64,000 nt of DNA from Dehalococcoidales bacterium (GTDB lineage Bacteria; Chloroflexota; Dehalococcoidia; Dehalococcoidales; RBG-16-60-22), in contig JBAZGT010000001.1 of assembly GCA_041652735.1 (NCBI GenBank), forward strand, positions 77,197-141,196, read 5' to 3'. The stretch's first letter is position 1. The number at the start of each line of letters is the position of its first letter. Of the stretch, positions 7,939 to 34,736 are shown piece by piece. The notes under the pieces are model-generated. The model was given only the letters and a program-made list of their open reading frames with translations. It was not told the DNA's origin and ran no database searches. A program made the position numbers and the translations under genes.

Positions 7939-7951
7939 GGGGGGTACCTCC

Positions 7952-9919: not shown

Positions 9920-9952
9920 AACGGCGTAGCGGTAAGAAGGGGGGATTGCAGC

Positions 9953-12160: not shown

Positions 12161-12164
12161 GTAG

Positions 12165-12237
12165 CAAGGGGCAAGTGACAAGGAAAGGCTAAGTGATAAT
12201 CCGGTAAGATTTACTACTTGACACTTGAGACTTGTCA
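12165..12237. repeat. Inverted pair of CAAGNNN / CTTGNNN heptad tracts (imperfect long hairpin) in the acsB-acsC spacer
   Basis: CAAG at 12165, 12172 and 12179; CTTG at 12217, 12224 and 12231. All have an exact 7-nt period, and the arms are roughly complementary. Confidence 0.7.
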
Positions 12238-12263
12238 TTTAAAATCCGAGAGGAGTTTATAAG

Positions 12264-13610: not shown

Positions 13611-13622
13611 AGAGGAGGCGAG

Positions 13623-14501: not shown

Positions 14502-14529
14502 AGCCAAATGCTATACAATATCACTGTCC

Positions 14530-15207
14530 ATGATAGAGAAGAATCCCCCGCTGCCAACACAGCCAGCGCGCGAGTTTGCCCATGAACTGGCTTTCAAACT
14601 AGCCAGGGAAAAGCTGGCCGCCATCGCCGACATCGAGGGGCAGTGCCGCAAGAGCGGCGCCCGCTACCTGCCGGCGGAAAAGTCCGTCATCATCGACTAC
14701 CTGAACCGCTTTTACCGGATAAGCTTACCCGGCGGCGAGGTCTCTTCCATCATCAATAACGAGCCGGTGCCGCTGCGCGACAAGATTTTGATACTCCACT
14801 ATTTCAACCGCGCCTCCGGCACGCCCCTGTCCGGCCGGAACATCACCTACAAAGAGCTGGCGGAAGGCATCAACTACTATCCCACGTTCTTCAAGCGGGC
14901 GATAGAGCCGATTATCAACAGCTTTAAAGACGACCCGCGATTGCTGCTGGAAGCGTCGGCCACGCTGGGGGGGCACAAGACCGACTACGGCGATATGGCC
15001 GTGGCCATAGACGCTTTTCCCCTGGTGCCGGTGACCGTCGTCATCTGGCGGGGGGATAAAGAGTTCCCGCCCAACGGGAATATCATGTTCGACAGCACCA
15101 TCCCGGAATACCTGCCCACGGAAGACATCACGATACTGTGTGAAATACTGGCCTGGAAACTCGTCAGGCTGATAAAGACCGGAGGTGACGCCCCTGGTAA
15201 AAGATAA
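14530..15207 (+). CDS. DUF3786 domain protein
   Basis: 225 aa; from memory the sequence resembles DUF3786 proteins that accompany acs genes; no strong RBS. Confidence 0.55.
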   Translation: MIEKNPPLPTQPAREFAHELAFKLAREKLAAIADIEGQCRKSGARYLPAEKSVIIDYLNRFYRISLPGGEVSSIINNEPVPLRDKILILHYFNRASGTPLSGRNITYKELAEGINYYPTFFKRAIEPIINSFKDDPRLLLEASATLGGHKTDYGDMAVAIDAFPLVPVTVVIWRGDKEFPPNGNIMFDSTIPEYLPTEDITILCEILAWKLVRLIKTGGDAPGKR

Positions 15208-15682
15208 CCTTACCGAGACAGATGTGCGGGAAAAACTACAGGAAATTTTCTCCCGCCACCACCGCGAAAGGCAGGAGCTGATACCGATTTTACAGGAGAC
15301 ACAGGAGCATTTCCGCTATCTGCCGGCGGCGGCGATGCGGGAAATAGCCAGATACCTGAATATGTCCCTGAATGCCGTTTACGGCGTCAGCACCTTCTAC
15401 TCCCAGTTCAAACTAACGCCCCTAGGCAAAAAGATAATACGCATCTGCCGCGGCACCGCCTGCCACGTGCGCGGCGCCGGCAAGGTGCTGGCGGAAGTGG
15501 AAAAACAGCTGGGCATCAAGGCCGGGGAAACCACGGACGACATGGAATACACCCTGGAGACAGTGGCCTGCATCGGAGCCTGCGCCCTGTCGCCCACGAT
15601 GACCATAGACAAAGAGACTTACGGCAAGATGACCCCCAAAAAAGTCGTGGAGGTTTTAGGTGACAGAAGCAAAACCAGCTAA
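15185..15682 (+). CDS. NuoE/HydC-like [2Fe-2S] thioredoxin-fold subunit
   Basis: 165 aa; CRGTACHVRG...CIGACALSP Cys pattern of the NuoE family. The start is uncertain (GTG at 15185 overlaps the previous gene by 23 nt). Confidence 0.8.
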   Translation: MTPLVKDNLTETDVREKLQEIFSRHHRERQELIPILQETQEHFRYLPAAAMREIARYLNMSLNAVYGVSTFYSQFKLTPLGKKIIRICRGTACHVRGAGKVLAEVEKQLGIKAGETTDDMEYTLETVACIGACALSPTMTIDKETYGKMTPKKVVEVLGDRSKTS

Positions 15683-17546
15683 TACCCGGCAAACCATACT
15701 GGTGTGCCAGGGGACCGGCTGCGTATCAGGAAAATCACTGGAAATTACCGAAGCCCTGTCCCGGGCGATAGCCGAAGCGGGGCTGGAGGGCGTAGCAGTG
15801 GATTTCACCGGCTGCCACGGGTTCTGCGAGCAGGGGCCGGTGGTCATCGTTGAGCCGGAAGGAATTTTTTACGCCCGCGTTACGCCGGCGGATGTGCCGG
15901 AAATCGTCACCTCTCACCTGCGCGACGGCAAGCCGGTGGAGCGCCTTTTCTATAAAGACCCGGTGACCGGCGCGGCTATCCCCTACCATAAAGACATCAA
16001 GTTTTACAGCATGCAGCAGCGCATCATTCTGCGCAATTGCGGCGGCATCAACCCGGAAAGAATCGAGGACTACATAGCCACCGGCGGCTACGAAGCGCTG
16101 AAAAGGGTGCTGCTGCACCTGACCCCGGAGCAGGTTATCGACGAGATAAAGCGCTCCGGCCTGCGCGGGCGCGGCGGCGCCGGTTTTCCCACCGGCCAGA
16201 AATGGCAGTTCTGCCACGACGTCAACGCCGAACAGAAGTATATGATATGCAACGCCGATGAAGGCGACCCCGGCGCGTTCATGGACCGCAGCACGATGGA
16301 AGGCGACCCCCATACCGTCCTGGAAGGCATGGCTATCGCCGCTCACGCCATCGGCGCCACGGAAGGGTACATTTACATCCGGGCGGAGTACCCGCTGGCG
16401 GTAAAGCGCGTGCGCCTGGCCATCCGGCAGGCGGAGGAAAAGGGGTTCCTCGGCGAAAATATCTTCGGCACTAAATTCAAACTTAAAATACACGTCAAAG
16501 AGGGCGCCGGCGCCTTCGTGTGCGGGGAAGAGACCGCGCTGATGGCGTCCATCGAGGGCAAACGCGGCATGCCCCGCCCCCGCCCTCCCTTCCCGGCTAC
16601 GTCCGGGCTCTGGGGCAAACCCACCACCATCAACAATGTAAAGTCGCTGGCCACGGTGCCGGTCATCATCGCCAAAGGGGCGGACTGGTACAACAGCATC
16701 GGGACGGAAAAAAGCAAGGGCACCTGCGTCTTCGCCCTGACCGGTAAAATCGCCAACAGCGGGCTGATAGAGGTGCCGATGGGCACGCCGCTGCGCACCA
16801 TCATTTACGAAATAGGCGGCGGCATTCCCGGCGACAAGAAATTTAAAGCCGTACAGACCGGCGGGCCTTCCGGCGGCTGCCTGCCGGAAAGTTACCTGGA
16901 CAAATCCGTCGACTACGAGTCGCTCACCGCGGCCGGCTCCATGATGGGCTCCGGCGGCATGGTGGTCATGGACGAGGAGACCTGCATGGTGGACGTGGCG
17001 CGCTATTTCCTCTCCTTCACCCAGGCGGAGTCCTGCGGCAAATGCGTCCCCTGCCGCGTGGGCACCAAGCAGATGCTGGATATCCTGGAAAGAATCTGCC
17101 GCGGCGAGGGCGTGCCGGAGGACCTGGCCCTGCTGGAAAAGCTCGGGAACGACATCAAAGCCGGCTCGCTGTGCGCGCTGGGGCAGACCGCGCCCAATCC
17201 CGTACTCACCACCATGAAGTATTTCCGTGACGAATATAAAGCTCACATAGAAGAGAAAAGGTGCCCGGCCGGCGCCTGCACCAAATTGATATCTTTCTAC
17301 ATCCTGCCGGACAAGTGCCAGGGCTGCGGCATCTGCGCCCGCGAATGCCCCACCGAGGCTATAGCCGGCGGCAAGCGGATGGTGCATGTCATCGACCAGG
17401 ATAAGTGCGTCAAGTGCGGCACCTGCCTGGACGCCTGCCCGGCCAAGTTCAAGGCCATCGTCAAGGTGTCCGGGGAAAAGGTGGACGTGCCGGACAAGCC
17501 GATACCGGTCAAGGAGAAGCCCAAGGCCGCGCCGGAAGGCAAGTAA
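15660..17546 (+). CDS. NuoF/HydB-like FMN and NAD(P)H-binding Fe-S flavoprotein with C-terminal 2x[4Fe-4S] ferredoxin domain
   Basis: 628 aa; GRGGAGFPTGQKW (FMN/NADH site); ESCGKCVPCRVG (N3 cluster); CQGCGICARECP and CVKCGTCLDACP; GGAGG RBS before the GTG start. Confidence 0.9.
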   Translation: MTEAKPANTRQTILVCQGTGCVSGKSLEITEALSRAIAEAGLEGVAVDFTGCHGFCEQGPVVIVEPEGIFYARVTPADVPEIVTSHLRDGKPVERLFYKDPVTGAAIPYHKDIKFYSMQQRIILRNCGGINPERIEDYIATGGYEALKRVLLHLTPEQVIDEIKRSGLRGRGGAGFPTGQKWQFCHDVNAEQKYMICNADEGDPGAFMDRSTMEGDPHTVLEGMAIAAHAIGATEGYIYIRAEYPLAVKRVRLAIRQAEEKGFLGENIFGTKFKLKIHVKEGAGAFVCGEETALMASIEGKRGMPRPRPPFPATSGLWGKPTTINNVKSLATVPVIIAKGADWYNSIGTEKSKGTCVFALTGKIANSGLIEVPMGTPLRTIIYEIGGGIPGDKKFKAVQTGGPSGGCLPESYLDKSVDYESLTAAGSMMGSGGMVVMDEETCMVDVARYFLSFTQAESCGKCVPCRVGTKQMLDILERICRGEGVPEDLALLEKLGNDIKAGSLCALGQTAPNPVLTTMKYFRDEYKAHIEEKRCPAGACTKLISFYILPDKCQGCGICARECPTEAIAGGKRMVHVIDQDKCVKCGTCLDACPAKFKAIVKVSGEKVDVPDKPIPVKEKPKAAPEGK

Positions 17547-19498: not shown

Positions 19499-21409
19499 AT
19501 GAACGGCTGGATGGGCAAGATACTCCAGGTAAACCTCAGCACCGGTACCATAAGTGAAATCGATACCAGGCCCTACGCGGATAAATACCTCGGGGGGAGG
19601 GGTATCGGGGTGGGGCTGTACTGGGAGAAAGTAAAACCGGAAACCGGGGCTTTCGACCCGGAGAACTGCCTCATCTTTACGACGGGGCCCATCGTGGGGA
19701 GCAGCGCCCAGGGCGCCACCTTGACCTCCGTGGTGGGCAAGTCCCCGGCCACCATACCGGAAGGGTTCTGCTACGGCAACCTGACCGGCTTCGTGGGGGC
19801 GGAGCTGAAAAAGGCGGGGTATGACGGGCTGGTGGTGGAGGGGAAGGCGTCCCGCCCGACCTATATCTTTATCGAGGACGGCAGGGCGGAGCTCAGGGAC
19901 GCCGCCGGGCTGTGGGGGCAAAACGGCTACCGCACCGGCGAGCTTCTGGAGCAAATCCACGGCGCCAAGACGCGCTTTATCGCCATCGGGGCGGCGGGCG
20001 AGCACCTGGTGAGAACGGCGGTGGCTTTAGCCAGCCACGACTGCACCGTCTCCGCCGGCTTCGGGGCGGTAATGGGGTCGAAAAACCTCAAGGCCATCGC
20101 CATCCGCGGCAGCGGCAAGGTAGAGGTGGCCGACCTCGAAAAGCTCCACGAGCTCAACCGCTACACCATCAAAATCAGCAAACGCGTGCGGCTCTCCATT
20201 CCGCCGCGCATCGAACACACCAAGTACGCCGAACTGCTGGAGGTAATCGGCAAGGGCAACTGCTACCTGTGCGGGCTGGAATGCGTGGCCGGGGTCTACC
20301 GCTACGGCAAGAAGCTCATCGGGCACCGCAAGTGCCAGTCCGTGGAATACTATTTACCCTGGGTCTACGGCCAGGAGGACGAGCCTATCGAGACCTTTTT
20401 CAACGCCCCGGTAATGGCCAACGACTACGGCTTCGATTCCTGGGAAATGACCAACATCATAGAATGGCTGTACGCAGGCTACCGTACCGGCGCCCTTACC
20501 GAGGCGGAGACCGGCCTGCCGCTTTCCCGAATAGGCACCGCCGAGTTCCTGGAGAAGCTGATGCGCGCCATCGCCTACCGGGAGGGGTTCGGGGACATAC
20601 TGGCGGAGGGGCTGGTGCGGGCGGGAGAAAAGATATCGCCCAAAGCCAGGGCGCTTTTCCCTCCTACCCTGGCACCCATCGGAGCGAACTACGCCTTTTC
20701 GCCGCGGACCTTCCCCATCATGGCGCTGCTTTATCCCCCGGAGCCCCGGGTACACCACGTCAACTACCACGATATCGCCTTCGTCCACATCGCCTGGAGC
20801 ATCGAACAGCAGCAGCCGGGCGTAACCGGAGTGACCGGGCCGCTGGTGCACCGCATAGCCAGGGAGTTCTGGGGCAGCGATACCGCCGGCGATTTTTCCA
20901 GCTACGAAGGCAAAGCCCTGGCGGCCAAAATAATCCAGCACCGTACTTACCTCAAAGAAATGCTCGGTCTGTGCGACTGGGGCTACCCGATTTCCTATTC
21001 CTTCAATACCCCCGACCACATGGGCGACCCCGATATCGAGGCTAAAATCTGCACCGCGGTGACCGGCATCCCCGGCGAAGAGCTGGACATCTACGCCGAG
21101 CGCGTTTACAATCTACAGCGGCTCATCCTGCTGCGCGAGGGACGACAGACCCCCGCCGCCGATTACCCCATGGACTTCATTTTCACCGAACCGCAGCGGG
21201 GCATGCCCGGCGCCGGCATCATGGTGCCCGGCCCCGGCGACAGCGCCGTGGACATGGTGGGCAACAAGCTCGACCGGGACAAGTTTACCGCCATGCTCAA
21301 GGAGTACTACACCCTGCGCGGCTGGGACGAAGAGACGGGGCTGCCCAGGGCGGAGACGCTGGCGGCGCTGGGGCTGGGGGATATGGCTAAGGCGTTAGCG
21401 GTTCAATAG
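19499..21409 (+). CDS. Aldehyde:ferredoxin oxidoreductase family (tungstopterin) enzyme
   Basis: 636 aa; N-terminus MNGWMGKILQVNLSTGTISE...YLGGRGIGVGLYW is typical of the AOR N-terminal domain. Confidence 0.88.
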   Translation: MNGWMGKILQVNLSTGTISEIDTRPYADKYLGGRGIGVGLYWEKVKPETGAFDPENCLIFTTGPIVGSSAQGATLTSVVGKSPATIPEGFCYGNLTGFVGAELKKAGYDGLVVEGKASRPTYIFIEDGRAELRDAAGLWGQNGYRTGELLEQIHGAKTRFIAIGAAGEHLVRTAVALASHDCTVSAGFGAVMGSKNLKAIAIRGSGKVEVADLEKLHELNRYTIKISKRVRLSIPPRIEHTKYAELLEVIGKGNCYLCGLECVAGVYRYGKKLIGHRKCQSVEYYLPWVYGQEDEPIETFFNAPVMANDYGFDSWEMTNIIEWLYAGYRTGALTEAETGLPLSRIGTAEFLEKLMRAIAYREGFGDILAEGLVRAGEKISPKARALFPPTLAPIGANYAFSPRTFPIMALLYPPEPRVHHVNYHDIAFVHIAWSIEQQQPGVTGVTGPLVHRIAREFWGSDTAGDFSSYEGKALAAKIIQHRTYLKEMLGLCDWGYPISYSFNTPDHMGDPDIEAKICTAVTGIPGEELDIYAERVYNLQRLILLREGRQTPAADYPMDFIFTEPQRGMPGAGIMVPGPGDSAVDMVGNKLDRDKFTAMLKEYYTLRGWDEETGLPRAETLAALGLGDMAKALAVQ

Positions 21410-23747: not shown

Positions 23748-24644
23748 ATGCCTAAAGCCGCCGCCATGAAATACGCTAACCACGCCAAAGCCGTGCCGTT
23801 CCGGGACTACGATGAAAACGGTTACCGCCGGGGAGCGGTGCTGGATAAAAAATGGCTCGGGTTCGATGTGCATATCAAATACGGGAGCTACTGGCTGGCC
23901 GGGCGGATGGGCAAAGCGCCTTATACACCCCACGTGCACGACTTCGACCAGGTGCTGCTCTTCGCGGGGTCGGACATGAACGACATCGGCGACCTGGGGG
24001 CGGAGGTGGAGTTCTGCCTGGGGGACGACCTGGAGACGCACATGATTACCACCACCACGGCGGTGGCGATTCCCAGGGGCACGCCGCATTTCCCGGCCAC
24101 GGTCAATATCCTGAACAAGCCGTTCTTCTATTACGAGATATCCCTGGCGCCCGCTTATAAAGAGACCCCCGCGCTCAAGGGGAAAGCCCCCGGGCCCATC
24201 GCCGGATTCAGGTCAGCCACGCGCAAGTACGTGATGCCGCTGGCTTTTGTGCGCAAGGGCGCCTGGCATTACGGCCCCACCAACCGCGATGACGGCGGCG
24301 GGCACCTCGCCTTCGTGCGGACGAAGGAAGCGGCGGGGTTCGACTTCGTGATGCTGTACGAGAGCATGAAGCGCGGCCCTTACCGCATCTGCCCGGAGCC
24401 GGAAAAACCCCACGCCCACCCCACCACCCAGATAATGATGTTCCTGGGCACCGACCCCTATGACATGGGCGACCTGGGGGCGGAGTTCGAGATTTGCCTG
24501 GGCAAGGAGCTGGAAAAGCACACTTTTACTAAGTCCACCGCCATCCTGACGCCGCCTTTCCTGCCGCACTGGCCGGGCGGGGTGGTAAAGCTGGACCGGC
24601 CGATTATCATGTGCGATATTCACCCGTTTGGCAATGAGCATTAA
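23748..24644 (+). CDS. Bicupin-like protein of unknown function (internal duplication)
   Basis: 298 aa. The two halves align by eye: PHVHDFDQVLLFAGSDMNDIGDLGAEVEFCLGDDLETH versus PHAHPTTQIMMFLGTDPYDMGDLGAEFEICLGKELEKH. Confidence 0.65.
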   Translation: MPKAAAMKYANHAKAVPFRDYDENGYRRGAVLDKKWLGFDVHIKYGSYWLAGRMGKAPYTPHVHDFDQVLLFAGSDMNDIGDLGAEVEFCLGDDLETHMITTTTAVAIPRGTPHFPATVNILNKPFFYYEISLAPAYKETPALKGKAPGPIAGFRSATRKYVMPLAFVRKGAWHYGPTNRDDGGGHLAFVRTKEAAGFDFVMLYESMKRGPYRICPEPEKPHAHPTTQIMMFLGTDPYDMGDLGAEFEICLGKELEKHTFTKSTAILTPPFLPHWPGGVVKLDRPIIMCDIHPFGNEH

Positions 24645-24676
24645 TGTATAACTAATATCGGGGGACCTATCAGATA

Positions 24677-24886
24677 ATGGCAGAACTCAATGAAAAGAAA
24701 TGCGCCGCCTGCTCCCTCGGCCCGCCGGACTGGGTGTACAAGTGCGAGGAATGCGGTAACGAATTTACGCTCCCCGCCCCTAAAGGCCCCGCCGAGGAGA
24801 AGAGTCGCGTTTGCCCGGAGTGCCACGGCAAGAATATTAAAAGAACAGATTTGGTCAAGTCAGAATCCTGCCCGCCCGGAGGCTGA
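24677..24886 (+). CDS. Small zinc-ribbon protein (FmdB-like CxxC...CxxC)
   Basis: 69 aa; CAAC, YKCEECGNEF and VCPECHG motifs. Confidence 0.55.
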   Translation: MAELNEKKCAACSLGPPDWVYKCEECGNEFTLPAPKGPAEEKSRVCPECHGKNIKRTDLVKSESCPPGG

Positions 24887-24943
24887 TAAACCGGTAACAC
24901 GGGCCGTTGGCCGGTAAAATTTTTCCAAGGGAGGGAACGATTT

Positions 24944-25471
24944 ATGGGCAACAGTGTGCTGATAGCGTATGCTTCCAAGTACGGTTCGACCAAAGAAATC
25001 GCGGAGAAAATCGGGGAGATATTGAAGCTGGACGGTCTGCCGGCCGATATCCTGCCGGTCAAGGGTATCAAGAATCCGGCGGACTACCAGGCTATTATCA
25101 TCGGCAGCGCCATGTACATGGGCATGTGGCGCAAAGAGGCCACCAACTTCGTGAAGAAGTACGAAACGGCGCTGGCGGGCAAGCCGGTCTGGGTCTTTTC
25201 CTCCGGCCCCTCCGGCAAAGGCGACCCCGCGGAGCTGCTGAAAGGCATTATCGTGCCGCGCGGCGTCAAGCCGCTTCTCGACCGCATCAAGCCGCGGGAT
25301 ATCGCCGTTTTCCACGGCCACCTCGACCCCGCTAAAATGAGCGGCATGGAAAGATGGATAGTCAAGCGGGTAGGCGGGGGAACGGGAGACTTCCGCGACT
25401 GGGATATGATAAACCAGTGGGCCAAAAAGGTAGCGGCGGCGATAAAGAGCAGCGGCCAGATACAGGAGTAA
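24944..25471 (+). CDS. Flavodoxin-like (HemG/flavodoxin_5 type) protein
   Basis: 175 aa; VLIAYASKYGSTKEIAEKI FMN-loop type N-terminus. Confidence 0.7.
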   Translation: MGNSVLIAYASKYGSTKEIAEKIGEILKLDGLPADILPVKGIKNPADYQAIIIGSAMYMGMWRKEATNFVKKYETALAGKPVWVFSSGPSGKGDPAELLKGIIVPRGVKPLLDRIKPRDIAVFHGHLDPAKMSGMERWIVKRVGGGTGDFRDWDMINQWAKKVAAAIKSSGQIQE

Positions 25472-25476
25472 ACTAA

Positions 25477-25875
25477 TTGGCGGACAAGCTGGTCACCGTA
25501 ATCATGTTTCAGACCGAGGAAGAGGCGTACCTTTCCAAATCGATACTGGAAGCGGCTGATATCGAGTCCCTGGTGGCAGAAGAAACCGAAGACCCGATTT
25601 ACGCCGGACTAATCAATCTACAGGTAAGAAAACGCGACGCCAAGAGGGCGCGGGAAATTCTCAAGGAAGCCCGGGTAATGCCGTCCGAACCCTTTAAAAT
25701 CTGGGACAAATGGATGGTGGCAATGGGGGCGGGGTGGGTACTGATACTGCTCGGCATTATGCTGATGCTGTTTACGCATATCAATAAGGTCATCCCGGGT
25801 ATCATCATTATAGCGGGAGTGATACTGGTGGCCGCCGGGTTCAATATTTACGGCAAGGACATACGGAAGGAATAA
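25477..25875 (+). CDS. DUF2007-like domain protein with C-terminal transmembrane segments
   Basis: TTG start; N-terminal LVTVIMFQTEEEAYLSKSILEAADIES pattern; hydrophobic C-terminus WMVAMGAGWVLILLGIMLMLF...IIIIAGVILVAAGF. Confidence 0.55.
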   Translation: MADKLVTVIMFQTEEEAYLSKSILEAADIESLVAEETEDPIYAGLINLQVRKRDAKRAREILKEARVMPSEPFKIWDKWMVAMGAGWVLILLGIMLMLFTHINKVIPGIIIIAGVILVAAGFNIYGKDIRKE

Positions 25876-25907
25876 AAATCCCCGGCCTTTTGAGGGGTCG
25901 GGGATTT
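25876..25907 (-). terminator. Intrinsic terminator of the hyd-metVF unit
   Basis: AAATCCCCG / CGGGGATTT 9-bp stem. On the minus strand it is followed by TTTTTATT. It lies 22 nt after the metF stop. Confidence 0.6.
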
Positions 25908-25928: not shown

Positions 25929-26810
25929 CTAGAGCCCGGCCATGGCCATGATTTCCGGCACTTTCTTTTCCCAGCCTATCGCCATGATGTGCACGCCCTG
26001 GCACATCGGCTTCATCTTCTTGATAAGGTCGGCGGCCATCTGGAGACCAACCTTTTCCCGGTCTTCTTTAGCCGCGGCGGCCATCTGCTGGATAAGGTCG
26101 TCCGGGACGCGGATGCCGGCCACGTTGGCGTTCATAAACCTGGCGAAACCGGCGTTTTTCAGCGGGATAATGCCCACCATCACCGGCGTCTTGAATTTTT
26201 CCACCCGCTTCATGAACTTCCCGAACGATACGGGGTCGTACACGGCCTGGGTCTGGAAGAACCTGGCGCCGGCGGCTATTTTCTTCCGCATCTTGGCTAT
26301 TTGCAGCTCTTCCGAGGCCTCGGTGTTGGACTCCACTTTCACTACAGCGCCGGGGAAGAAATCCGGCTTGCCCTTAAGCTCGTTCATGGAAAGGTCGAAC
26401 CCCTCATTGAGGCTGGTGATAGCCTGGAGTAGCGTCACGGAATCCAGATCGAAGACGCCCTTGGCCTGCGGGTGGTCGCCCAGAGCGGGGAGGTCGCCGG
26501 TAAGCGCCAGGACGTTCTTGATGCCCATCACCCACGCCCCGAGCAGGTCGGACTGCAGGGCGATGCGGTTGCGGTCGCGGCAGGTCACCTGGAAGATAGG
26601 CTCCAGGCCGCCCTGCACGCACAGCGCGGCGGTGACCAGGCCGGAAAGGCGCATCACCGAGCTCTGCTGGTCGGTAACGTTGGCGGCGTCCACCTTGCCT
26701 TTCAAGACCTCGATGTTCTCTTTTATTTCATGAGTATCGGTGCCCTTGAGCGGGCCGAACTCGCAGGATATGGCGAACTGACCTGATTCCAGTTTAGATT
26801 GAAGGCTCAT
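25929..26810 (-). CDS. metF: Methylenetetrahydrofolate reductase
   Basis: 293 aa; MSLQSKLESGQFAISCEFGPLKG; MTHFR family. The ATG overlaps the metV stop (TAATG). Confidence 0.92.
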   Translation of the reverse strand: MSLQSKLESGQFAISCEFGPLKGTDTHEIKENIEVLKGKVDAANVTDQQSSVMRLSGLVTAALCVQGGLEPIFQVTCRDRNRIALQSDLLGAWVMGIKNVLALTGDLPALGDHPQAKGVFDLDSVTLLQAITSLNEGFDLSMNELKGKPDFFPGAVVKVESNTEASEELQIAKMRKKIAAGARFFQTQAVYDPVSFGKFMKRVEKFKTPVMVGIIPLKNAGFARFMNANVAGIRVPDDLIQQMAAAAKEDREKVGLQMAADLIKKMKPMCQGVHIMAIGWEKKVPEIMAMAGL

Positions 26811-27598
26811 TATTTCACCTCCTTGGGAGGATTGGCTGCCGGCTTGGGAGCTCCGGCGGGTGCCGCCCCGGCTTTAGGAGTGGCGGCGGGCGCAGGGGCG
26901 GGAGGAGGCGCAGGCTTATCGGTTACCTTGCCGGGATTTTCCAATCCATAGCGCGCCAGGGACATCATCTCCGGGCGGGGCATGATTTTCTTATGGTCGA
27001 GGGGTTTCATCATATCATCGAGACGTGACAGTAAACCCCGCTCCTTGAGTCGGTTATAAATCAGTTCCCAGCCGCAATCGCGGTCTTTGGAGATTTCACA
27101 CTTGCCTTTGTTGGCCCCGCCACAGGCGCCGCTGACCAGGCTCTTGGTGCAGGCGGTGAGGGGGCAAATGCCGCCGGTATGGTAGAGGAGGCACTGGCCG
27201 CATTCAAAACAGCGCTCGGTGCCTTCCCACTCGCCGCGGGAGCCGCCCAGGTTGACGGTATTGCAGCCGGGGTACACCGGCTTGTTGATAGAAGCCGCCA
27301 CCGCCTGTATGCCGACGCCGCAGGTCAGCACCAGCACCGCGTCCGCGGCTTTAAGCTGTTCCACCCTGCCCCGCAGCTCGGACTTTACCAGCGCCTTGCT
27401 GCAGAGAAAATCACAGTTCCTGGTGCCGGTAACGTTCTTGCCGGCTTCCGTCAGCTTCTGCTTCATCTCGGCTACCTGCTCGGGGCCGCCGCTGCCGGAC
27501 GACTGGGCGCAGCCTTCACAGCCCATGATAAAGACATTCTTATCCTTTTCCAGGTAGGCTATTATTTCATCAAAATGCTTTTGTTCGGAATATAACAT
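26810..27598 (-). CDS. metV: MetV (MTHFR-associated Cys-rich Fe-S/zinc-finger subunit) with Pro/Ala-rich C-terminal tail
   Basis: 262 aa; Cys-rich blocks GCEGCAQS, CFECGQCLL, CPLTACTKSLVSGACGG and KCE; tail KPAPPPAPAPAATPKAGAAPAGAPKPAANPPKEVK. Confidence 0.85.
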   Translation of the reverse strand: MLYSEQKHFDEIIAYLEKDKNVFIMGCEGCAQSSGSGGPEQVAEMKQKLTEAGKNVTGTRNCDFLCSKALVKSELRGRVEQLKAADAVLVLTCGVGIQAVAASINKPVYPGCNTVNLGGSRGEWEGTERCFECGQCLLYHTGGICPLTACTKSLVSGACGGANKGKCEISKDRDCGWELIYNRLKERGLLSRLDDMMKPLDHKKIMPRPEMMSLARYGLENPGKVTDKPAPPPAPAPAATPKAGAAPAGAPKPAANPPKEVK

Positions 27599-27612
27599 CG
27601 CTCCTCCTTTAC

Positions 27613-29172
27613 CTACACTACCCGGTACTGACCGAGGTCTCGACCTTTAGGGGTAACACAATGGACGGCGCAGGCGATACAGGGGTCGAACGAGCGGATA
27701 ATCCGCACCACTTCAAAGGGGTTCTTCTCGTCCTTGACTTTAGCGCCGATGAGCGCCTGCTCGATAGGCCCGTGCTGACCTTTATCGTCCATCGGGGAGA
27801 CGTTCCAGGTGGTGGGAACGACCGCCTGGTAGTTGGCGATTTTCTTGTTCTTAATCTCAATCCAGTGTCCCAGGGCGCCGCGCGAGCCTTCGATAATGCC
27901 CATGCCGGACGCTTCTTCCGGGAGCTCGTATTCAACATAAGCGGGCTGGCCGGGCTTGAGCGAAAGCGCCCAGCCTTCCAGGTTATCAACAATATACTTG
28001 GCGGAAAGCGCCCGCGCCAGGTGCCGGCCGAGCACGGAGAAAAGCGCCGCCGGGGTGGCGTTAAGCGCTTTCAAAGCGCCGTCCACCATTTCCTTCATCC
28101 TGGGGTCGCCTTTGGCGTAGGTAACGGCCACCCTGGCCAGCGGCCCCACCTCATAGACCTTGCCGTCATAGCGGGGGGCTTTGGACCAGGAGTAAGCGCC
28201 GCTTTTGCCGGCCTGCGGCCTGGTGTCCCCGCTGGAGGGGTGCAGGCCGGAGGTGGCGTCCTCGTACCAGGAGTGCTTGACCTGCTCGGTGATTTTAGAG
28301 GTATCCAGGGCGCCGGGCCGCAAATCCGCGCCGATGGTGCCCTGCTTGAAGAGTCGCTCGCGGGTGGCGTAGTCCGGGCTCTTGCCGTCCAGGTCATACA
28401 TGCCGTAGGAAAGCAGGTTCTTGCAGCCGACGCCGATACCGGCGTAGTCGCCGTAAGCTTTGGCCACGGCCAGCACATCCGGGATATAAACATTATTCAC
28501 AAAGTCCTGGAGGATTTTAATCTTCCAGATATAAGCCATGATATTATCCACCGTGGGGACGCTGGTAACACCGCCGGGCACCACGCCCACGCTGTGCGGG
28601 ACCTTGCCGGAGAAAATGCTGACGGCCTCGTGGCCGATGCGCCGCATCTCCAGCGCCTTCACGTAGTGGGCGACGCACTGCTGGTTGGCCTCCGGGGGGA
28701 GGCGGTAATCGCCCTCATAGCGGGGCATAAACGGCTCCAAAGCGCCGCGCTGGATAAAGTCCTTGACGGAGTTTAGCTGGGAATCATTGCCGGAGTAAGC
28801 AGCCACATCCGCCACGTTCACGTAGTCGAGTGCGGCTAAATGGTAAAAGTGGAGGATATGGTCCTGGATAACGTGCGCGCCGTGAATCAGGTTGCGGATG
28901 ATGCGGCCGTTGTCCGGTATCTTGTCCGCGATGCCGAAGGCGCTGTCCAGGTTCAGGGTGGCGGCGATGCCGTGCGACTGCGGGCAGACGCCGCAAATGC
29001 GCTGGGCGATTACCTGGGCGTCGCGCGGGTCCCGTCCTCTTAAAATAAGTTCCAGGCCGCGGAAAAGATTGCCGGTAGCCCGGGCATCCTTGACCGCGCC
29101 GTTTTCAATAACGCACTCAATCTTGAGGTGTCCCTCAATCCTGGTGACGGGGTCAATAACGATTTTACCCAT
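27613..29172 (-). CDS. [NiFe]-hydrogenase large subunit (uptake-type, group 1/2-like)
   Basis: 519 aa; VTRIEGH, RICGVCPQSH, and C-terminal DPCIACAVH followed by a 15-aa extension (a protease-processed catalytic enzyme). Confidence 0.93.
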   Translation of the reverse strand: MGKIVIDPVTRIEGHLKIECVIENGAVKDARATGNLFRGLELILRGRDPRDAQVIAQRICGVCPQSHGIAATLNLDSAFGIADKIPDNGRIIRNLIHGAHVIQDHILHFYHLAALDYVNVADVAAYSGNDSQLNSVKDFIQRGALEPFMPRYEGDYRLPPEANQQCVAHYVKALEMRRIGHEAVSIFSGKVPHSVGVVPGGVTSVPTVDNIMAYIWKIKILQDFVNNVYIPDVLAVAKAYGDYAGIGVGCKNLLSYGMYDLDGKSPDYATRERLFKQGTIGADLRPGALDTSKITEQVKHSWYEDATSGLHPSSGDTRPQAGKSGAYSWSKAPRYDGKVYEVGPLARVAVTYAKGDPRMKEMVDGALKALNATPAALFSVLGRHLARALSAKYIVDNLEGWALSLKPGQPAYVEYELPEEASGMGIIEGSRGALGHWIEIKNKKIANYQAVVPTTWNVSPMDDKGQHGPIEQALIGAKVKDEKNPFEVVRIIRSFDPCIACAVHCVTPKGRDLGQYRVV

Positions 29173-30071
29173 TATTTCACCTCCTTGTTAGCCCAGTAAG
29201 CGCCGACCACGGGCAGGTCAACGTCCACCAGTTTCTCATAGAACGGGGCCGTCTCGTTGGGGAACTCCGGCTGGGTACAGCCGTTGCACGGCGCCCCGGC
29301 GCCGATAACCCAGTTGGTGCCGCCGTTCCATTTGCGCAGCGGGCAGTCCGCGTGGGTGATGGGCCCCTTGCAGCCGAGCTCGTAGAGGCAGCCGTCATCG
29401 CCGAATTTCTTGGCGAACTTGCCTTCATCGAAATAGGCGCGGCGGGGGCAGTTTTCATGGATGAGCTTGCCGTAGAACGCCCTGGGGCGGAGGAAGTCGT
29501 CCAGCTCTTCCGGTTTGGGGAGGCCGTTCAGGATAATGCCGGCCACCGTCCCCACGAACCAGTCCGGGTGGGGCGGGCAGCCGGGAATATTGATGAGGGG
29601 TTTCTTGATGCCGGCGGACTCGAGGGCCTTTTGCACCGAAACGCAGCCGGTGGGATTGGGAGGCGCCGCCGGAATGCCGCCGAAGGAAGCACAGGTGCCC
29701 ATGGCGATAACCGCCAGCGCGTCCCGGGACAGCTCGATGACTCTTTGCTGCATGGTGACCGGTTTGCCGTCCCTTTCGCCGACAGCCCCGTAAACGCCGC
29801 CGTCCGCGGTGGGCACCGCGCCGTCCACCACCAGGACATATTCGCCCTTCTGCTTTTTGGCGGTGTCCTCCATGACGCCGATAGCCAGTTCCCCGGCCGC
29901 CGCCATGACGACCGGATGGAACTTGAGGTTGATGTGCACGCCCGGCACTATCTGGTCGATAAGCACATTCTTGATCGTGGGGCTAGCCGAATTGAGCATG
30001 GTGACGGCGCAGCCGCTGCAGGCGGCCGTTTGCAGGTAAATTACCGGCAGTTCTTTAACCATCAAGTCCAA
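29172..30071 (-). CDS. [NiFe]-hydrogenase small subunit without a Tat signal peptide
   Basis: 299 aa. It starts MDLMVKELPVIYLQTAACSGC, directly at the proximal-cluster Cys, with no RRxF motif. It keeps the HENCPRR, GCKGPITHADCP and PCNGCT cluster motifs. Its TAA overlaps the large-subunit ATG. Confidence 0.9.
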   Translation of the reverse strand: MDLMVKELPVIYLQTAACSGCAVTMLNSASPTIKNVLIDQIVPGVHINLKFHPVVMAAAGELAIGVMEDTAKKQKGEYVLVVDGAVPTADGGVYGAVGERDGKPVTMQQRVIELSRDALAVIAMGTCASFGGIPAAPPNPTGCVSVQKALESAGIKKPLINIPGCPPHPDWFVGTVAGIILNGLPKPEELDDFLRPRAFYGKLIHENCPRRAYFDEGKFAKKFGDDGCLYELGCKGPITHADCPLRKWNGGTNWVIGAGAPCNGCTQPEFPNETAPFYEKLVDVDLPVVGAYWANKEVK

Positions 30072-30177
30072 CTCCTTTCTCGTTGCTGAGTAAATTCAGG
30101 GGGGTAGGATGTAATATTTAATTATACTAGAAAAAGAGGGGATAAGGGAATCAGGGGAAATACCTAAAAAATAAACT

Positions 30178-30450: not shown

Positions 30451-32409
30451 TTAATCCCCCAGCGCTTTGGCGACGATTTCCGCCAGGTCCAGCACCTGCA
30501 CCTTTTCCGAGGCTTCTTTGTCTTTCAGGCCGTCATCGAACATGGTCATGCAGTAGGGGCAGGCCACGCAGACGGTATCCGGGTTTTGCTTTAAAGCTTC
30601 TTCCACCCGCGCCACGTTGATCAGCGAGCCTTCTTTTTCTTCCATCCACATGCGGCCGCCGCCGGCGCCGCAGCAAAAGCCCTTGTCCCGGTTGCGTGCC
30701 ATTTCCGCCGGCGCCTGACCGGTGGCCGCGCTGATAACCTCGCGGGGGGCGTCAAAGATACCGTTATACCGGCCCAGGTAGCAGGAGTCATGATAGACGA
30801 CATTGCCCAGCTCCGCCGCCGGGTTCAGCTTGATTTTACCGTCATGGATAAGCTGGTTAATCAGCTCGGTGTGGTGAACGACTTCCAGCTCCACGCCATA
30901 TTGCTTATAGTCGTTCTTCAGCGTGCTGAAACAGTGCGGGCACTGGGTGATAATTTTTTTAACGCCTTTTTCCTTGAACATTTTAACGTTGGCCTGGGCC
31001 ATCGTATCGAAAACATACTCGTTGCCGAGGCGGCGCACGCTATCGCCGCAGCACATTTCGTCGCGGCCAAGGGTGCCCCAGGAAATACCGGACTTATCGA
31101 ATATTTTCGCCAGGGAGAGCGTCGTCTTGCGGTTGCGGGCGTCGAACGCCCCGGCGCAGCCCACGTAAAACAGGTAGTCCGTCTTGCCGGCCTCGTAAGA
31201 CGGCACGGTAATATCCGCCGCCCACTTGGTGCGCTCCGCCGGCGCGATGCCCCAGGGGTTGCTGCGCTGCTCCATGTTCTCGAAAAGGGTGAGCAGCTCG
31301 TCCGGGAACTTGGACTTCATTTCCACCAGGTTACGCCGCATGTCCACTATCCGCGGCACGTGCTCGATAAAGACCGGGCAGACCTCCATGCAGGCGCCGC
31401 AGGTGGTGCACTGCCAGATAACATCCTCGGAAACGCTCCCCTCCCCTTCTCCCCCGATGAGCGGCAGCTCTTTAGCGTCTTTCTTGCCGGTCTCCAGCAG
31501 GTTCATCTTGATATCATGTATCACCAGCCGCGGCTGGAGGGACTTGCCGGTAAAGGTGGCCGGGCAGTTGTCCGAACAGCGGCCACACTCGGTGCAGGAA
31601 TAGGAGTCGAACAGCCCTTTCCAGGGGAATTGCGCGACCTGCCCCACCCCGAAGGTATTGCCCTTCTTGAACTCCTCACGACCCTGGGTATTGATTTTGT
31701 CCAGGCTCTTGAAGAAGCAGTTGGGGATGGAGGTAAGCACGTGCATGTGCTTGCTGTAAGGCAGGTAGTTGAGGAAGGAAAGCAGGATAACGGCATGAAT
31801 CCACCACAAGACATTTGCCGCCGTGTCCAGGCCGGCGGCCCCCGCCGGCAGCCAGCCGGCGACCAGGTTGGCGACGGGCATATAGGCACCGGCGCGGTCC
31901 ACGCCGCCGGCGATTTCACAGGCGTTCAGGCCGAAGAAGGCAATCATCAGCCCCGCCACCAGGCCAAGGATAATAAAGGCGTCCCGGCTGCGCGCCTCCA
32001 CGTAAGGGGGCGGGAAAAAGAGGCGGCGGATAACGGCCAGGACTACCGCCAGCAGCGCCAGCAGGGACATGATATCGAAGATTAAAGCCAGGGTGAAATA
32101 GGCGCCGTCCGGCAGGTTGGAGAAGCTCAGGCTGGGAAACAGTCCGTTAAGCAAAAACTCCGTATTGGAGACCAAAAGAATCATGAAAGCCCAGAACAGC
32201 ACGAAGTGGTTGATGCCGAAAGGCTTTTTCACCACGCGCCGCTGGCCGAAGGCGTAATAGAGCATGTTCCAGAAACGCCGCGGGATAGCGTTGAAGCGGT
32301 TGTCCGGCCGGCCTTTCAGGACCAGCCCGAAGCGCCGGTAGCAGCTATAAACGAAGAAAGCCACCGCCAGGACGAAAACGATAATAAACGCTATTACGGT
32401 TCCGGACAT
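30451..32409 (-). CDS. Membrane-bound Fe-S oxidoreductase (N-terminal multi-TM domain, 2x[4Fe-4S], two CCG domains; HdrD/GlpC/DUF224-type)
   Basis: 652 aa; hydrophobic N-terminal third; CTECGRCSDNCP and CTTCGACMEVCP; CCG-type repeats (YVGCAG...CCGDS and YHDSCY...FCCGAGGG). Confidence 0.85.
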   Translation of the reverse strand: MSGTVIAFIIVFVLAVAFFVYSCYRRFGLVLKGRPDNRFNAIPRRFWNMLYYAFGQRRVVKKPFGINHFVLFWAFMILLVSNTEFLLNGLFPSLSFSNLPDGAYFTLALIFDIMSLLALLAVVLAVIRRLFFPPPYVEARSRDAFIILGLVAGLMIAFFGLNACEIAGGVDRAGAYMPVANLVAGWLPAGAAGLDTAANVLWWIHAVILLSFLNYLPYSKHMHVLTSIPNCFFKSLDKINTQGREEFKKGNTFGVGQVAQFPWKGLFDSYSCTECGRCSDNCPATFTGKSLQPRLVIHDIKMNLLETGKKDAKELPLIGGEGEGSVSEDVIWQCTTCGACMEVCPVFIEHVPRIVDMRRNLVEMKSKFPDELLTLFENMEQRSNPWGIAPAERTKWAADITVPSYEAGKTDYLFYVGCAGAFDARNRKTTLSLAKIFDKSGISWGTLGRDEMCCGDSVRRLGNEYVFDTMAQANVKMFKEKGVKKIITQCPHCFSTLKNDYKQYGVELEVVHHTELINQLIHDGKIKLNPAAELGNVVYHDSCYLGRYNGIFDAPREVISAATGQAPAEMARNRDKGFCCGAGGGRMWMEEKEGSLINVARVEEALKQNPDTVCVACPYCMTMFDDGLKDKEASEKVQVLDLAEIVAKALGD

Positions 32410-32421
32410 TATTTATCCCTC

Positions 32422-33762
32422 TTAAGCTGTTTTTCCGGCGGCTTTACGCTGCCGGGCCTCCCGGACATAAGCGGTGATAGCCGGTATCACCTGGAAAAGG
32501 TCGCCGACGATGCCGAAAGTGGCAACCTCGAAGATAGGGGCGTTTTTATCCCGGTTGATGGCGATAATGGTGTCCGAGTCCTGCATGCCCACCAGGTGCT
32601 GGATGGCGCCGCTGATGCCGCAGGCGATGTAAATCTTGGGCCGGACGGTCTTGCCGGTCTGCCCTACCTGTCTTTCCAGGGGCATCCAGCCAGCTTCCAC
32701 GGCGGCGCGGGAACAGGCTACCACGCCGTGCAGTTCGTCCGCCAGCGCCTGGAGAATTTTATAATTATCCGCGTTGCACATGCCGCGCCCGCCGGAAACG
32801 ATAATTTCCGCGGCGGCCACGTCCACGCTGTCCAGATTTTCATCGCTGATGATTTCCAGCACCTTGGCGGCGATGTCCGCTTCCTTGACCGGCGTGGTCT
32901 CCCGGACGATAGCGCCGCGGCGGGAGGCGTCTTTAGCCGGCATGGGCATAACGTGAGGCCGCACCGTGGACATCTGCGGCCGGGTGAACTCCGTTAAAAT
33001 GGTGGCCATGATATTGCCGCCGAAAGCGGGACGCGTCTGCAATAAAAATCCCTTATCGTCGATGGAAAGCCCGGTGCAGTCGGCGGTAAGGCCGGTATGC
33101 AGCCTGGTGGCTACCGCCCCGGCCAGGTCCCGGCCCAGCCCGGTAGCGCCCACCAGCACGATTTCCGGCTTGTACTTTTCAATCAAATAGCAAAGCGTTT
33201 TATAATATGATTCCGTCCGGTAATAGTGGAGAACGGGGTCGTCCACCAGGTAGGCCCTGGCCGCGCCGTAGGCAAAGGCCTCCGTACAGAGGTTCTCCAC
33301 CTTATCCCCGAGGACGACGGAACAAAGCTCGGCGTGCCGGGCTTTAGCCAGCTCCGCCCCCACCCCTAAAAGCTCCCAGGAGACCTCGGCGGGCTTGCCC
33401 TCGGTATGCTCGGTAAAGACCCAGACCCCCTTGTATTCCTTGAGTTTCTCCAGGCGGGGGTCGACGGGAACAATTTCCGGTTCCGGGGCGGGCGCGGCGG
33501 CTTTTTGCTTGGCCAGCTCGTCCAGGATTTTCTGCTCTTCCGGGGTATAGATGATTTCCAGCGCCTGGGCGGGGCAAATCTTAACGCAGCGCTGGCAGCC
33601 GGTGCACTTTACAACGTCGATAACCGGCTCGCCCTTATCGTTCATGGTAACGGCGTCAAATGGGCATTCCGCCTGGCAGCGGGCGCCGCAGGCGATGCAC
33701 TTGCCGGGGATGAGCCGGGCTTTGCCGCGGGGGCGTTTTATTTTCTTCGGTTCTTCTGGCAT
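32422..33762 (-). CDS. etfA: Electron transfer flavoprotein alpha subunit with N-terminal 2x[4Fe-4S] ferredoxin domain
   Basis: 446 aa; [13 protein letters not shown] and [12 protein letters not shown] in the first ~70 aa, an Ala/Pro linker, then the EtfA core ([11 protein letters not shown]). Confidence 0.9.
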
Positions 33763-33814
33763 TTTTTATTCAGTATTCCCGGTTTTTTAGCGACCTTGTT
33801 TAATTTCGTTATTT

Positions 33815-33908
33815 TGTCATTCTGAGCGAAAGCGAAGAATATCAGGGCGGTTTGGGGTTTCCACCCCTCCCCGGGATTCTTCGGTCACTATGTTCCCTCA
33901 GAATGACA
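33815..33908. repeat. MITE-like palindromic element (family TGTCATYCTGAG...CTCAGMATGACA), copy 1
   Basis: 94 bp with perfect 12-bp terminal inverted repeats TGTCATTCTGAG / CTCAGAATGACA. It sits between the etfB stop and the etfA start. No target-site duplication is evident. Confidence 0.8.
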
Positions 33909-33923
33909 TCATAATTCCCCGGT

Positions 33924-34736
33924 TTACAGGGACAGCAAGTCCTTTTCTATCATCCGGCTGATCAATAATTTAGCGGTGTCTTCCGGCTTATCCGTCTCTT
34001 GGCCGAGAATCTCGCCTTTGACTCTTTCCGGCGAGAATATCTTGCGCACCTGGGTGGCCGAACCCTTGAGGCCGATGGTGGTCTCGTCCATTTTCATGGC
34101 CTTGTTGTCCCAGAGCACCACCGGGGCGTCCGCGGCCATCAGGCGCATGGGGACGTTGGGATAGCGGGGGGTGTTGATTTCCCGCAGCACGGCAATCATG
34201 ACGGGGAGGGGGGAGGTAACGATTTCATGGCGGCCTTCCAGCTTGCGCCGCACCTTGATTATCTTCGACTTTAAGTCCACCTCTTCCACGCGGTCGACCA
34301 GTGTTAACTGGGAGCAGCCGAGGCGGGTGGCGATGCCGGGGCCTACCTGGGCGGTATCGCCGTCAATGGTCTGGCGGCCGCACATGATGATGGCCAGCTC
34401 TTCTTTTTCCGCCAGTTTCTTGATGGCGCCGGTCAGGACCATGCTGGTGGCCAGCGTATCCGCCCCGCCGAAAACACGGTCGGAGAGTAAAATGGCTTCA
34501 TCGGCGCCCTGGGCTATCGTCTTGCGCAGCGTTACCTCGGCGCTGGGCGGGCCCATGGAAATGACCGCCACGCGGAAGCCGTACTTGTCCTTGAGACGCA
34601 GGCTCTCCTCCAGGGCGTGGGTATCATAGGGGTTCATGATAAAAGGCACGCCTTCTCTGATGAGGGTGCCAGTTACGGGGTCTACTTTAACCTGAGTGGT
34701 ATCAGGTACTTGTTTGACGCAGGTGACTATCAGCAT
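33924..34736 (-). CDS. etfB: Electron transfer flavoprotein beta subunit
   Basis: 270 aa; MLIVTCVKQVPDTTQVKVDP...; typical EtfB N-terminus and DRVFGGADTLATS block. Confidence 0.92.
   Translation of the reverse strand: MLIVTCVKQVPDTTQVKVDPVTGTLIREGVPFIMNPYDTHALEESLRLKDKYGFRVAVISMGPPSAEVTLRKTIAQGADEAILLSDRVFGGADTLATSMVLTGAIKKLAEKEELAIIMCGRQTIDGDTAQVGPGIATRLGCSQLTLVDRVEEVDLKSKIIKVRRKLEGRHEIVTSPLPVMIAVLREINTPRYPNVPMRLMAADAPVVLWDNKAMKMDETTIGLKGSATQVRKIFSPERVKGEILGQETDKPEDTAKLLISRMIEKDLLSL

Follow-up and report, generated by a model that had tools for sequence, protein, structure and literature searches.

The locus described here raises the question of what supplies the electrons for the reduction of methylene-tetrahydrofolate (methylene-THF) in certain uncultured bacteria and, in particular, whether a hydrogenase may do so directly. 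It lies in a 64,000-nucleotide (nt) stretch of contig JBAZGT010000001.1 of a Dehalococcoidales bacterium (assembly GCA_041652735.1, positions 77,197 to 141,196 of the forward strand), which was analysed as a whole and is termed the window below. A reading of its open reading frames (ORFs) and domains reveals one discrete minus-strand operon at 25929-30071, comprising hydS and hydL, for the small and large subunits of a [NiFe]-hydrogenase, followed by metV and metF, for the two subunits of a methylene-THF reductase (MTHFR). Of the four recognised types of MTHFR, the simplest, MetVF, has an electron donor that is still debated; MetV, an Fe-S/Zn subunit that strongly stimulates MetF, is present in types II, III (with RnfC2) and IV (with HdrABC-MvhD) (PMC8760232). 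On balance we consider it probable, if by no great measure, that the products of the four genes form a soluble cytoplasmic complex, HydSL-MetVF, which would reduce methylene-THF to methyl-THF directly with H2 and would constitute a candidate fifth, non-bifurcating type of MTHFR. The operon itself is not a chance observation, the recurrence of the four-gene order in about 60 independent genomes being confirmed.

Gene order and its conservation

The four genes, all on the minus strand, are hydS (29172..30071; 299 residues; PF01058 at 3.6e-27 and PF14720 at 2.1e-34), hydL (27613..29172; 519 residues; PF00374 at 1.2e-159 and NCBIfam NF033181 at 712 bits against a cutoff of 600), metV (26810..27598; 262 residues; PF12225 at 1.3e-28) and metF (25929..26810; 293 residues; PF02219 at 4.1e-40), the last of which encodes the catalytic, flavin-containing subunit. 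Gene calls, domains and junctions all agree with the view, taken in an earlier sequence-only reading of this DNA, that these are four tightly packed genes of one strand.

A scan with HydL, in which each GTDB species was represented by one genome, retrieved 80 loci, in which neighbours were then sought by tblastn with the window proteins and counted; at least 900 nt downstream of hydL were needed for a locus to count for metV, and at least 3.6 kb for metF. Among relatives whose small subunit lacks a twin-arginine (Tat) signal, metV is the next gene after hydL in all 60 evaluable loci, either directly or after hydD, a gene for a HycI-family protease of about 150 residues, and metF is also present in 38 of the 40 in which it could be evaluated. 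Every metV-linked small subunit begins a few residues before the proximal cysteine motif. The carriers include Dehalococcoidales, other Dehalococcoidia, Syntrophaceae, Syntrophobacteraceae, Thermodesulfobacteriota and unclassified bacteria, all of them represented by uncultured metagenome-assembled genomes (MAGs) or metagenome contigs. Synteny in relatives had been proposed as a check on the original observation, and these counts show that the order is not unique to this genome and extends over several phyla. The two loci without metF both come from Caldisericota (L076 4766-12147, and L079); there, hydS-hydL-hydD-metV is followed by hypF and hypD, with no metF within reach.

A sister clade at about 60% HydL identity, found in MAGs labelled Planctomycetota, Aminicenantes, Gemmatimonadota and others, provides the most informative comparison. 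Its gene order is hydL-hydD-hydS, its small subunit begins with a Tat signal of the canonical TRRxFLK form and ends in a hydrophobic (transmembrane) anchor, and the genes that follow on the 3' side encode a 4Fe-4S protein resembling HybA and a membrane protein resembling NrfD; neither metV nor metF is found in any of its 11 loci. The contrast between the two groups indicates that loss of the export signal and anchor coincides exactly with replacement of the HybA/NrfD module by MetV-MetF. This also bears on the earlier concern that the hydrogenase might fall in a clade with an unrelated partner: the partner genes of the sister clade are the very ones whose place MetV-MetF have taken in the Tat-less clade. 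In a neighbour-joining tree of the hydrogenases (100 bootstraps; three outgroups in all, with E. coli HyaB and HybC used for rooting), the main Tat-less clade was monophyletic in 94 of 100 replicates, the Tat-bearing clade in 100 of 100, and the two were recovered as sisters in 89 of 100, with the Caldisericota pair placed outside either clade.

Searches from independent starting points gave a comparable picture. A profile-free search with HydS against 1.8 billion representative proteins (representatives at 50% identity) yielded 94 close relatives with an intact N-terminus, seven of which show CxGC within their first 30 residues, and an RRxF Tat motif is present in 70 of 84 others. The top match overall (P0361, 57% identity), which is one of the seven Tat-less candidates, was looked up blind and proved to be encoded in a hydS-hydL-hydD-metV-metF unit; P0253 and P0349, which were found from the MetV side, show the same arrangement. 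The more distant small subunits with short N-termini, namely P0380, P0369 (with a cytochrome b) and P0489, are not linked to metVF, suggesting that the link marks one clade and not Tat-less enzymes in general.

The junctions within the window unit are equally distinctive. TAATG overlaps join hydS to hydL and metV to metF, as had been claimed, and an identical 17-mer, AAGGAGGTGAAATAATG, spans both of them (29172-29188 and 26810-26826, minus strand). This 17-mer encodes the KEVK with which both HydS and MetV end, and the ribosome-binding site of the downstream gene is consequently encoded in the last codons of the upstream one. The MetV proteins of many relatives likewise end in EVK(A), owing to the same junction arrangement. 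Between hydL and metV lies a spacer of 14 nt, GTAAAGGAGGAGCG (27599..27612, minus strand), whose AAGGAGG ribosome-binding site had also been noted before and is readily read, and in which neither a terminator nor a promoter was predicted. The ribosome-binding site of hydS, AAAGGAG (30072..30078, minus strand), precedes ATG 30062 by 9 nt and TTG 30065 by 6 nt, and the GAAAGGAG sequence at this site is invariant in the alignment of Dehalococcoidales relatives.

On its 5' side the unit is bounded by an AT-rich gap of 379 nt holding a promoter-like block (30121..30172, minus strand), which reads TTTTTAGGTATTTC..GATT...TAGTATAAT and has TATAAT at 30121-30126. The block was read from the sequence, the consensus promoter scan having made no call there, and is common to six of eight aligned Dehalococcoidales relatives, the exceptions being L006 and L011. 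No Rfam family matched anywhere in the window, and the hydS leader, scanned permissively, likewise gave neither a riboswitch nor any other RNA family. On its 3' side metF is followed by an intrinsic terminator (25870..25907, minus strand), in which a hairpin at 25877-25907 precedes UUUUUAUU. The hairpin with its U-run has a folding free energy of -17.5 kcal/mol (z -3.06), and none of 200 shuffled sequences was as stable, a result that bears out its earlier description as a good terminator. Judging from these boundaries and junctions, a single transcript most likely covers hydS-hydL-metV-metF.

The hydrogenase and MetV

The large subunit contains the motifs RIEGH, RICGVC and DPCIACAVH and a tail of 15 residues after the final His, just as the sequence-only reading had stated. 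Its sequence identity is 48% with the [NiFeSe] large subunit of D. vulgaris and 41% with HyaB and HybC of E. coli. The best PDB matches of HydL are periplasmic [NiFeSe]/[NiFe] group 1 enzymes (E-values of 4e-133 and below) and those of HydS are periplasmic [NiFeSe] small subunits (3e-78); HydL scores far lower against structures of groups 2a, 3 and 1h than against group 1. HydS aligns end to end with the periplasmic small subunits from the CxxC of the proximal cluster onward and has ligands for the proximal, medial and distal Fe-S clusters. The group 1 features present are therefore the Ni-Fe ligand motifs, the closest sequence match, the ligands of three clusters and the C-terminal extension; those absent are the twin-arginine signal, the C-terminal membrane anchor of HydS and a cytochrome b/HybA/NrfD partner, for which the unit has no gene. 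Eight codons 5' of the earliest start available to hydS the frame is closed by a stop, and the sequence shows no RR motif; this leaves no room for a Tat signal, in line with the original claim that the small subunit has none. The true start is probably ATG 30062 or TTG 30065.

By its sequence the enzyme is a group-1-like hydrogenase of the matured, catalytic type, as indicated by the HydL tail and by the gene for a HycI-family maturation protease (about 150 residues) that sits in the operon of relatives. The earlier distinction of this enzyme from HupUV-type sensors holds on the same two grounds. A gene for a maturation protease was looked for in the 64-kb window and was not found. The label "uptake-type" applied to the enzyme is to be taken as a statement of homology only.

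The ligands of the small subunit required some revision. That HydS carries ligands for three clusters stands, and the earlier assignment of individual motifs does not: in the alignment the His of HENCP is a ligand of the distal cluster, whose ligands fall in the region of His205 and Cys208, and the fourth medial Cys is absent. Around residue 255 HydS reads NWV where the [NiFeSe] enzymes read NWC. With Val in place of that Cys, a [3Fe-4S] medial cluster is predicted, held by three Cys as in the standard [NiFe] enzymes. The NWC form is kept in the Tat-bearing sister clade and in deeper Tat-less lineages, and Val is found in a Dehalococcoidales subclade that includes the window and in Caldisericota. 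This distribution implies a putative switch of the medial cluster from [4Fe-4S] to [3Fe-4S] within the metVF-linked enzymes.

Two other identities were considered for the hydrogenase and rejected. It is not a [NiFeSe] (Hys) enzyme, as DPCIAC has Cys and not selenocysteine and NWV stands in place of NWC. Nor is it a group 3c enzyme of the Mvh/Vhu kind, which would have made the unit a type IV system in disguise: VhuA/MvhA match only the first 120 or so residues (E-value 9e-31), the VhuG match has an E-value of 1e-5 and mvhD is missing from the unit, in contrast to the 712 bits obtained with the group-1 model.

The reductase half of the unit has the organization of a MetVF core, with a PF12225 metV directly before a PF02219 metF and a TAATG overlap between them. 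Twelve cysteines of MetV (27, 30, 66, 93, 130, 133, 136, 145, 150, 159, 167 and 175) are invariant or nearly so, four of them in the N-terminal domain and eight in the PF12225 domain. An additional one, Cys112, in an HPGC/HPAC motif, occurs in 88% of the hydrogenase-linked copies and in no second-copy MetV of the same loci, a pattern consistent with a residue that may lie at an interface or serve as an extra ligand. In an AlphaFold2 model (predicted local distance difference test score 82.8) the N-terminal domain is alpha/beta by DSSP, and its four cysteines map, by sequence position, at or just past the ends of strands. A sequence search of the PDB with MetV gave no homologue, and a Foldseek comparison of the model with the PDB gave only generic matches of the N-terminal part to Rossmann or periplasmic-binding-protein-like folds, at a template-modelling score of at most 0.31.

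The tail of 35 residues, rich in Pro and Ala, that had been singled out as unusual does exist in the window MetV (approximately residues 226 to 262). Its standing as a special feature was not upheld: long tails occur among the genome loci only in L005, L017 and L022 (MetV of 263, 265 and 261 residues). We accordingly discarded it as a functional feature and regard it as variable low-complexity sequence.

The proposed electron path and its alternatives

In the proposed mechanism H2 would be split at the Ni-Fe site of HydL, and the electrons would pass along the three Fe-S clusters of HydS, of which the medial one is a predicted [3Fe-4S] cluster in this lineage. They would then enter the Fe-S centres of MetV and move on to the flavin of MetF, from which a hydride would be transferred to methylene-THF; neither NAD(P)H, ferredoxin nor an Hdr or Rnf module would be involved. 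Such an enzyme would have originated from a periplasmic, membrane-anchored, quinone-reducing group-1 hydrogenase through loss of its Tat signal and anchor and exchange of its HybA/NrfD output module for MetV-MetF. We infer the physical complex, the electron path, the direction of H2 uptake and the lack of energy coupling. Taking E0' values of -414 mV for H+/H2 and -200 mV for methylene-THF/methyl-THF, the H2-driven reaction would have a standard free-energy change of about -41 kJ/mol and would stay exergonic down to approximately 0.006 Pa H2. These energetics would suit organisms living at the very low H2 of peat and sediments.

The unit combines properties of several known systems without being identical to any. 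It resembles the type II MetVF of Clostridium ljungdahlii, Thermoanaerobacter kivui and Eubacterium callanderi in its overlapping metV-metF, its PF02219 MetF, its PF12225 MetV with 12 Cys and its lack of an NAD(P)H-binding subunit; it differs in sharing an operon, and translational coupling, with a [NiFe]-hydrogenase, so that H2 by way of HydSL would be the donor, whereas type II uses reduced ferredoxin in vitro (PMC8760232). With the type IV MetFV-HdrABC-MvhD of Moorella thermoacetica and Sporomusa ovata and the type III RnfC2-MetVF of Acetobacterium woodii it shares MetV as an Fe-S adaptor from an input module to MetF, but here the input module is a complete catalytic [NiFe]-hydrogenase and not an NADH-oxidising HdrA or RnfC2. 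Neither an rnfC-like gene nor hdrA, hdrB, hdrC or mvhD is found in the unit, and the nearest NuoF-like gene lies about 8 kb away on the other strand (15660-17546); the earlier observation that no HdrA, MvhD, RnfC-like or NAD(P)H module belongs to the unit thus holds for all its genes. The periplasmic group 1 [NiFe]/[NiFeSe] enzymes (D. vulgaris Hys, that of Dm. baculatum, and Hyb-type with HybA/HybB) are closest in sequence and share the Ni-Fe ligands and the processing tail; unlike them, the window enzyme has no Tat signal, anchor, cytochrome or HybA/NrfD, has Cys for selenocysteine and has MetVF as its neighbour.

Further parallels are functional. A. woodii and T. kivui possess a hydrogen-dependent CO2 reductase (HDCR) whose hydrogenase passes its electrons by way of Fe-S subunits directly to a Wood-Ljungdahl enzyme, with no soluble carrier, as would be the case here; HDCR, however, unites an [FeFe]-hydrogenase with a formate dehydrogenase at another step of the pathway, and the partner modules are not homologous. 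The MvhAGD-HdrABC system of methanogens (group 3c) likewise couples a cytoplasmic [NiFe]-hydrogenase to the reductase of a terminal exergonic step, a coupling that in our case would be made by a group-1-like hydrogenase and without a bifurcating HdrA flavoprotein. The membrane chain of S. ovata also amounts to net H2-dependent reduction of methylene-THF, but is proposed to run from a periplasmic cytochrome-b hydrogenase through quinone to MetVF-HdrABC-MvhD (PMC9430772), whereas the window unit would be soluble and has no membrane components. Full-text searches of the open-access literature gave no description of a hydSL-metVF unit or of a Tat-less group-1 hydrogenase coupled to an MTHFR; they did give hypotheses of Ech-MetVF and Rnf-MetVF and reports of Chloroflexi hdrABC-mvhD-metVF clusters.

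Several considerations weigh against direct reduction by HydSL-MetVF. The complex, the single transcript and the activity are all deduced from gene context. The MetV-like protein of Caldisericota may partner a hydrogenase without MetF, or else metF may be encoded elsewhere in those genomes. The cluster of Etf and membrane HdrD-like genes that adjoins the unit in most Dehalococcoidales might take part. Finally, direct use of H2 would remove the ferredoxin surplus that drives Rnf-dependent ATP synthesis in acetogens of the A. woodii type, and such an enzyme would fit poorly with lithoautotrophic growth by acetogenesis if no other step conserved energy. Given this expected loss and the lack of any sign of energy coupling in the gene set, the enzyme more likely serves a Wood-Ljungdahl pathway that acts as an electron sink or in assimilation.

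The same complex might instead run in reverse, oxidising methyl-THF to methylene-THF and releasing H2 to syntrophic partners; the methyl-THF would derive either from the Wood-Ljungdahl pathway operating backwards or, by O-demethylation, from methoxylated aromatics in peat. The carriers do include MAGs of Syntrophaceae and Syntrophobacteraceae and Dehalococcoidales of peat and wetlands, the closest solved relatives are of the [NiFeSe] type, enzymes of which are good H2 producers, and sequence cannot fix the direction. Nevertheless, coupling the oxidation of methyl-THF (E0' -200 mV) to the reduction of protons would cost about 41 kJ/mol under standard conditions and at equal substrate ratios could proceed only if H2 were kept under about 0.006 Pa, far lower than the thresholds typical of methanogens, and the unit has no module for reverse electron transport. 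We therefore regard this direction as unlikely.

To a similarly small degree it is conceivable that the genes are co-regulated without their products forming a complex, the soluble hydrogenase reducing a diffusible carrier such as ferredoxin, flavodoxin or another that an ordinary type II MetVF then uses. Purified type II MetVF accepts reduced ferredoxin in vitro (PMC8760232), and the window, like some close relatives, has a flavodoxin gene that converges on metF. On the other hand, Tat loss and metV linkage go together one-to-one across phyla, the HybA/NrfD partner genes are replaced by MetV-MetF, and the Caldisericota unit keeps hydSL-hydD-metV without metF, which together argue for a dedicated partner rather than loose co-regulation. 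In addition, the unit has no conserved ferredoxin gene, flavodoxin occurs as a neighbour only in close relatives, and H2 at environmental pressures would be a poor reductant of ferredoxin.

A larger or energy-coupled system has a still lower probability in our estimation. In such a system HydSL-MetVF would work together with EtfAB and membrane HdrD-like proteins, or would bifurcate electrons from H2 to methylene-THF and a ferredoxin-like acceptor. The genomic basis for it is a trio of genes, etfB, an etfA fused to a ferredoxin domain and a membrane HdrD-like gene, which lies directly upstream of hydS on the same strand (30451-34736, minus strand) in the window and in most Dehalococcoidales relatives. 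The HdrD-like protein (30451-32409) has 652 residues, a transmembrane region, two [4Fe-4S] clusters and two CCG domains and is the only CCG-domain protein noted there; the trio resembles the Etf:menaquinone oxidoreductase modules of syntrophs. Complete or cut by a contig end, it occurs at about 23 Dehalococcoidales loci, but is absent from all carriers of other lineages. It is also missing from L003, L017, L019, L030 and L034, and in L002 it stands downstream of metF on the opposite strand; in the window the 379-nt gap with its promoter-like block sets it apart from hydS. An energy-conserving MTHFR has long been postulated (PMC8760232), but the four-gene unit has only one flavin site, in MetF, and no bifurcating module of the HdrA, EtfAB or NuoF type.

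The specifically bifurcating form of HydSL-MetVF, with the reaction 2 H2 + methylene-THF + Fd_ox -> methyl-THF + Fd_red (Fd, ferredoxin), is not favoured by the evidence and seems very unlikely, with the single flavin site and the lack of any known bifurcating module speaking against it; if true, it would represent the energy-conserving MTHFR for which the Wood-Ljungdahl pathway has long been searched.

Least probable is a regulatory H2 sensor of the HupUV/HoxBC kind controlling metVF expression. Sensors of this kind have neither a C-terminal extension on the large subunit nor a maturation protease gene in their operon. Despite the Tat-less, cytoplasmic nature of the hydrogenase and the histidine kinase and response regulator interleaved with metV and metF in Syntrophobacteraceae, this identity is contradicted by the 15-residue extension of HydL and the protease in the operons of relatives, and is further opposed by the best similarity being to catalytic group 1 enzymes and by the restriction of the kinase to one lineage, with none in the window unit.

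Genomic neighbourhood and biological meaning

The window also contains a complete Wood-Ljungdahl/acs cluster (1180-15207, plus strand) with cooC, fhs, cooC, folD, acsD, acsA, acsB, acsC, acsE and a DUF3786 gene, but no metVF. An ORF of 340 codons within this cluster (4739-5761) had no Pfam match. In other genomes the association is closer. Two Syntrophaceae-type MAGs (L037 and L041) have fhs-folD-hydS-hydL-metV-metF on one strand, and in a Dehalococcoidia MAG (L043) a divergent acsB-acsD-acsC-acsE lies just upstream of the unit. In JGI metagenome 3300060291 (L084 1-14657) hydS-hydL-hydD-metV-metF is embedded in the acs cluster itself, between cooC and DUF3786; the full order there is acsC, a NuoE-like gene, a NuoF-like gene, cooC, the five-gene unit, DUF3786, a 1350-residue formate-dehydrogenase/GltD-like fusion and an oppositely oriented extra metF.

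A second metVF copy adjoins the hydrogenase-linked one in several genomes, accompanied by a NuoF-like gene or by a gene for a GltD/HdrA-like flavoprotein of 1381 residues. Copies placed side by side in this way look like alternative, interchangeable electron-input modules for one reaction. In Syntrophobacteraceae (L049 244-13230; L051-L058) the 1381-residue GltD/HdrA-like protein, an NAD(P)H flavoprotein, is encoded together with the second metV-metF upstream of hydS. In this family the metV and metF of the hydrogenase-linked copy are separated by a gene for a cyclic nucleotide (cNMP)-binding histidine kinase, and that metF is followed by a gene for a response regulator.

Other neighbours in the window are of more local distribution. 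Convergent to metF (23748-25875, plus strand) are a 298-residue ORF without a Pfam match, a 69-residue zinc-ribbon with four Cys, a Flavodoxin_5 protein and a 132-residue ORF without a Pfam match. Outside the window, only close Dehalococcoidales relatives have the first three of these next to the operon, and owing to this confinement the flavodoxin, zinc-ribbon and 298-residue ORF were rejected as partners. Between the acs cluster and the hydrogenase unit lie genes for a NuoF-like flavin mononucleotide (FMN)/Fe-S protein (15660-17546, plus strand) and an aldehyde:ferredoxin oxidoreductase (19499-21409, plus strand); the former possibly serves as NAD(P)H module in a bifurcating hydrogenase or formate dehydrogenase.

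Taken together, a cytoplasmic hydrogenase derived from group 1 and a new input module for the MetVF reductase suggest an undescribed route for H2 into the methylene-THF step. The electron donor of MetVF is an acknowledged open problem of acetogen bioenergetics, and the four-gene unit makes the question testable by heterologous expression. If the reading of direct reduction by H2 is true, HydSL-MetVF would be a fifth type of MTHFR and the second case, after HDCR, of H2 entering the Wood-Ljungdahl pathway without a soluble carrier. It would also exemplify the re-purposing of a respiratory enzyme, in which a periplasmic hydrogenase became a cytoplasmic enzyme of biosynthesis or of an electron sink through loss of the Tat signal and anchor and a swap of the partner module. 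The MAGs in which the cluster is common belong to uncultured Dehalococcoidia and Syntrophia-related bacteria and were obtained from metagenomes of peat, fen, soil and springs. The relatively positive redox potential of the methylene-THF step could allow these organisms to consume H2 at very low partial pressures, which would bear on the flow of H2 and carbon in methane-producing wetlands.

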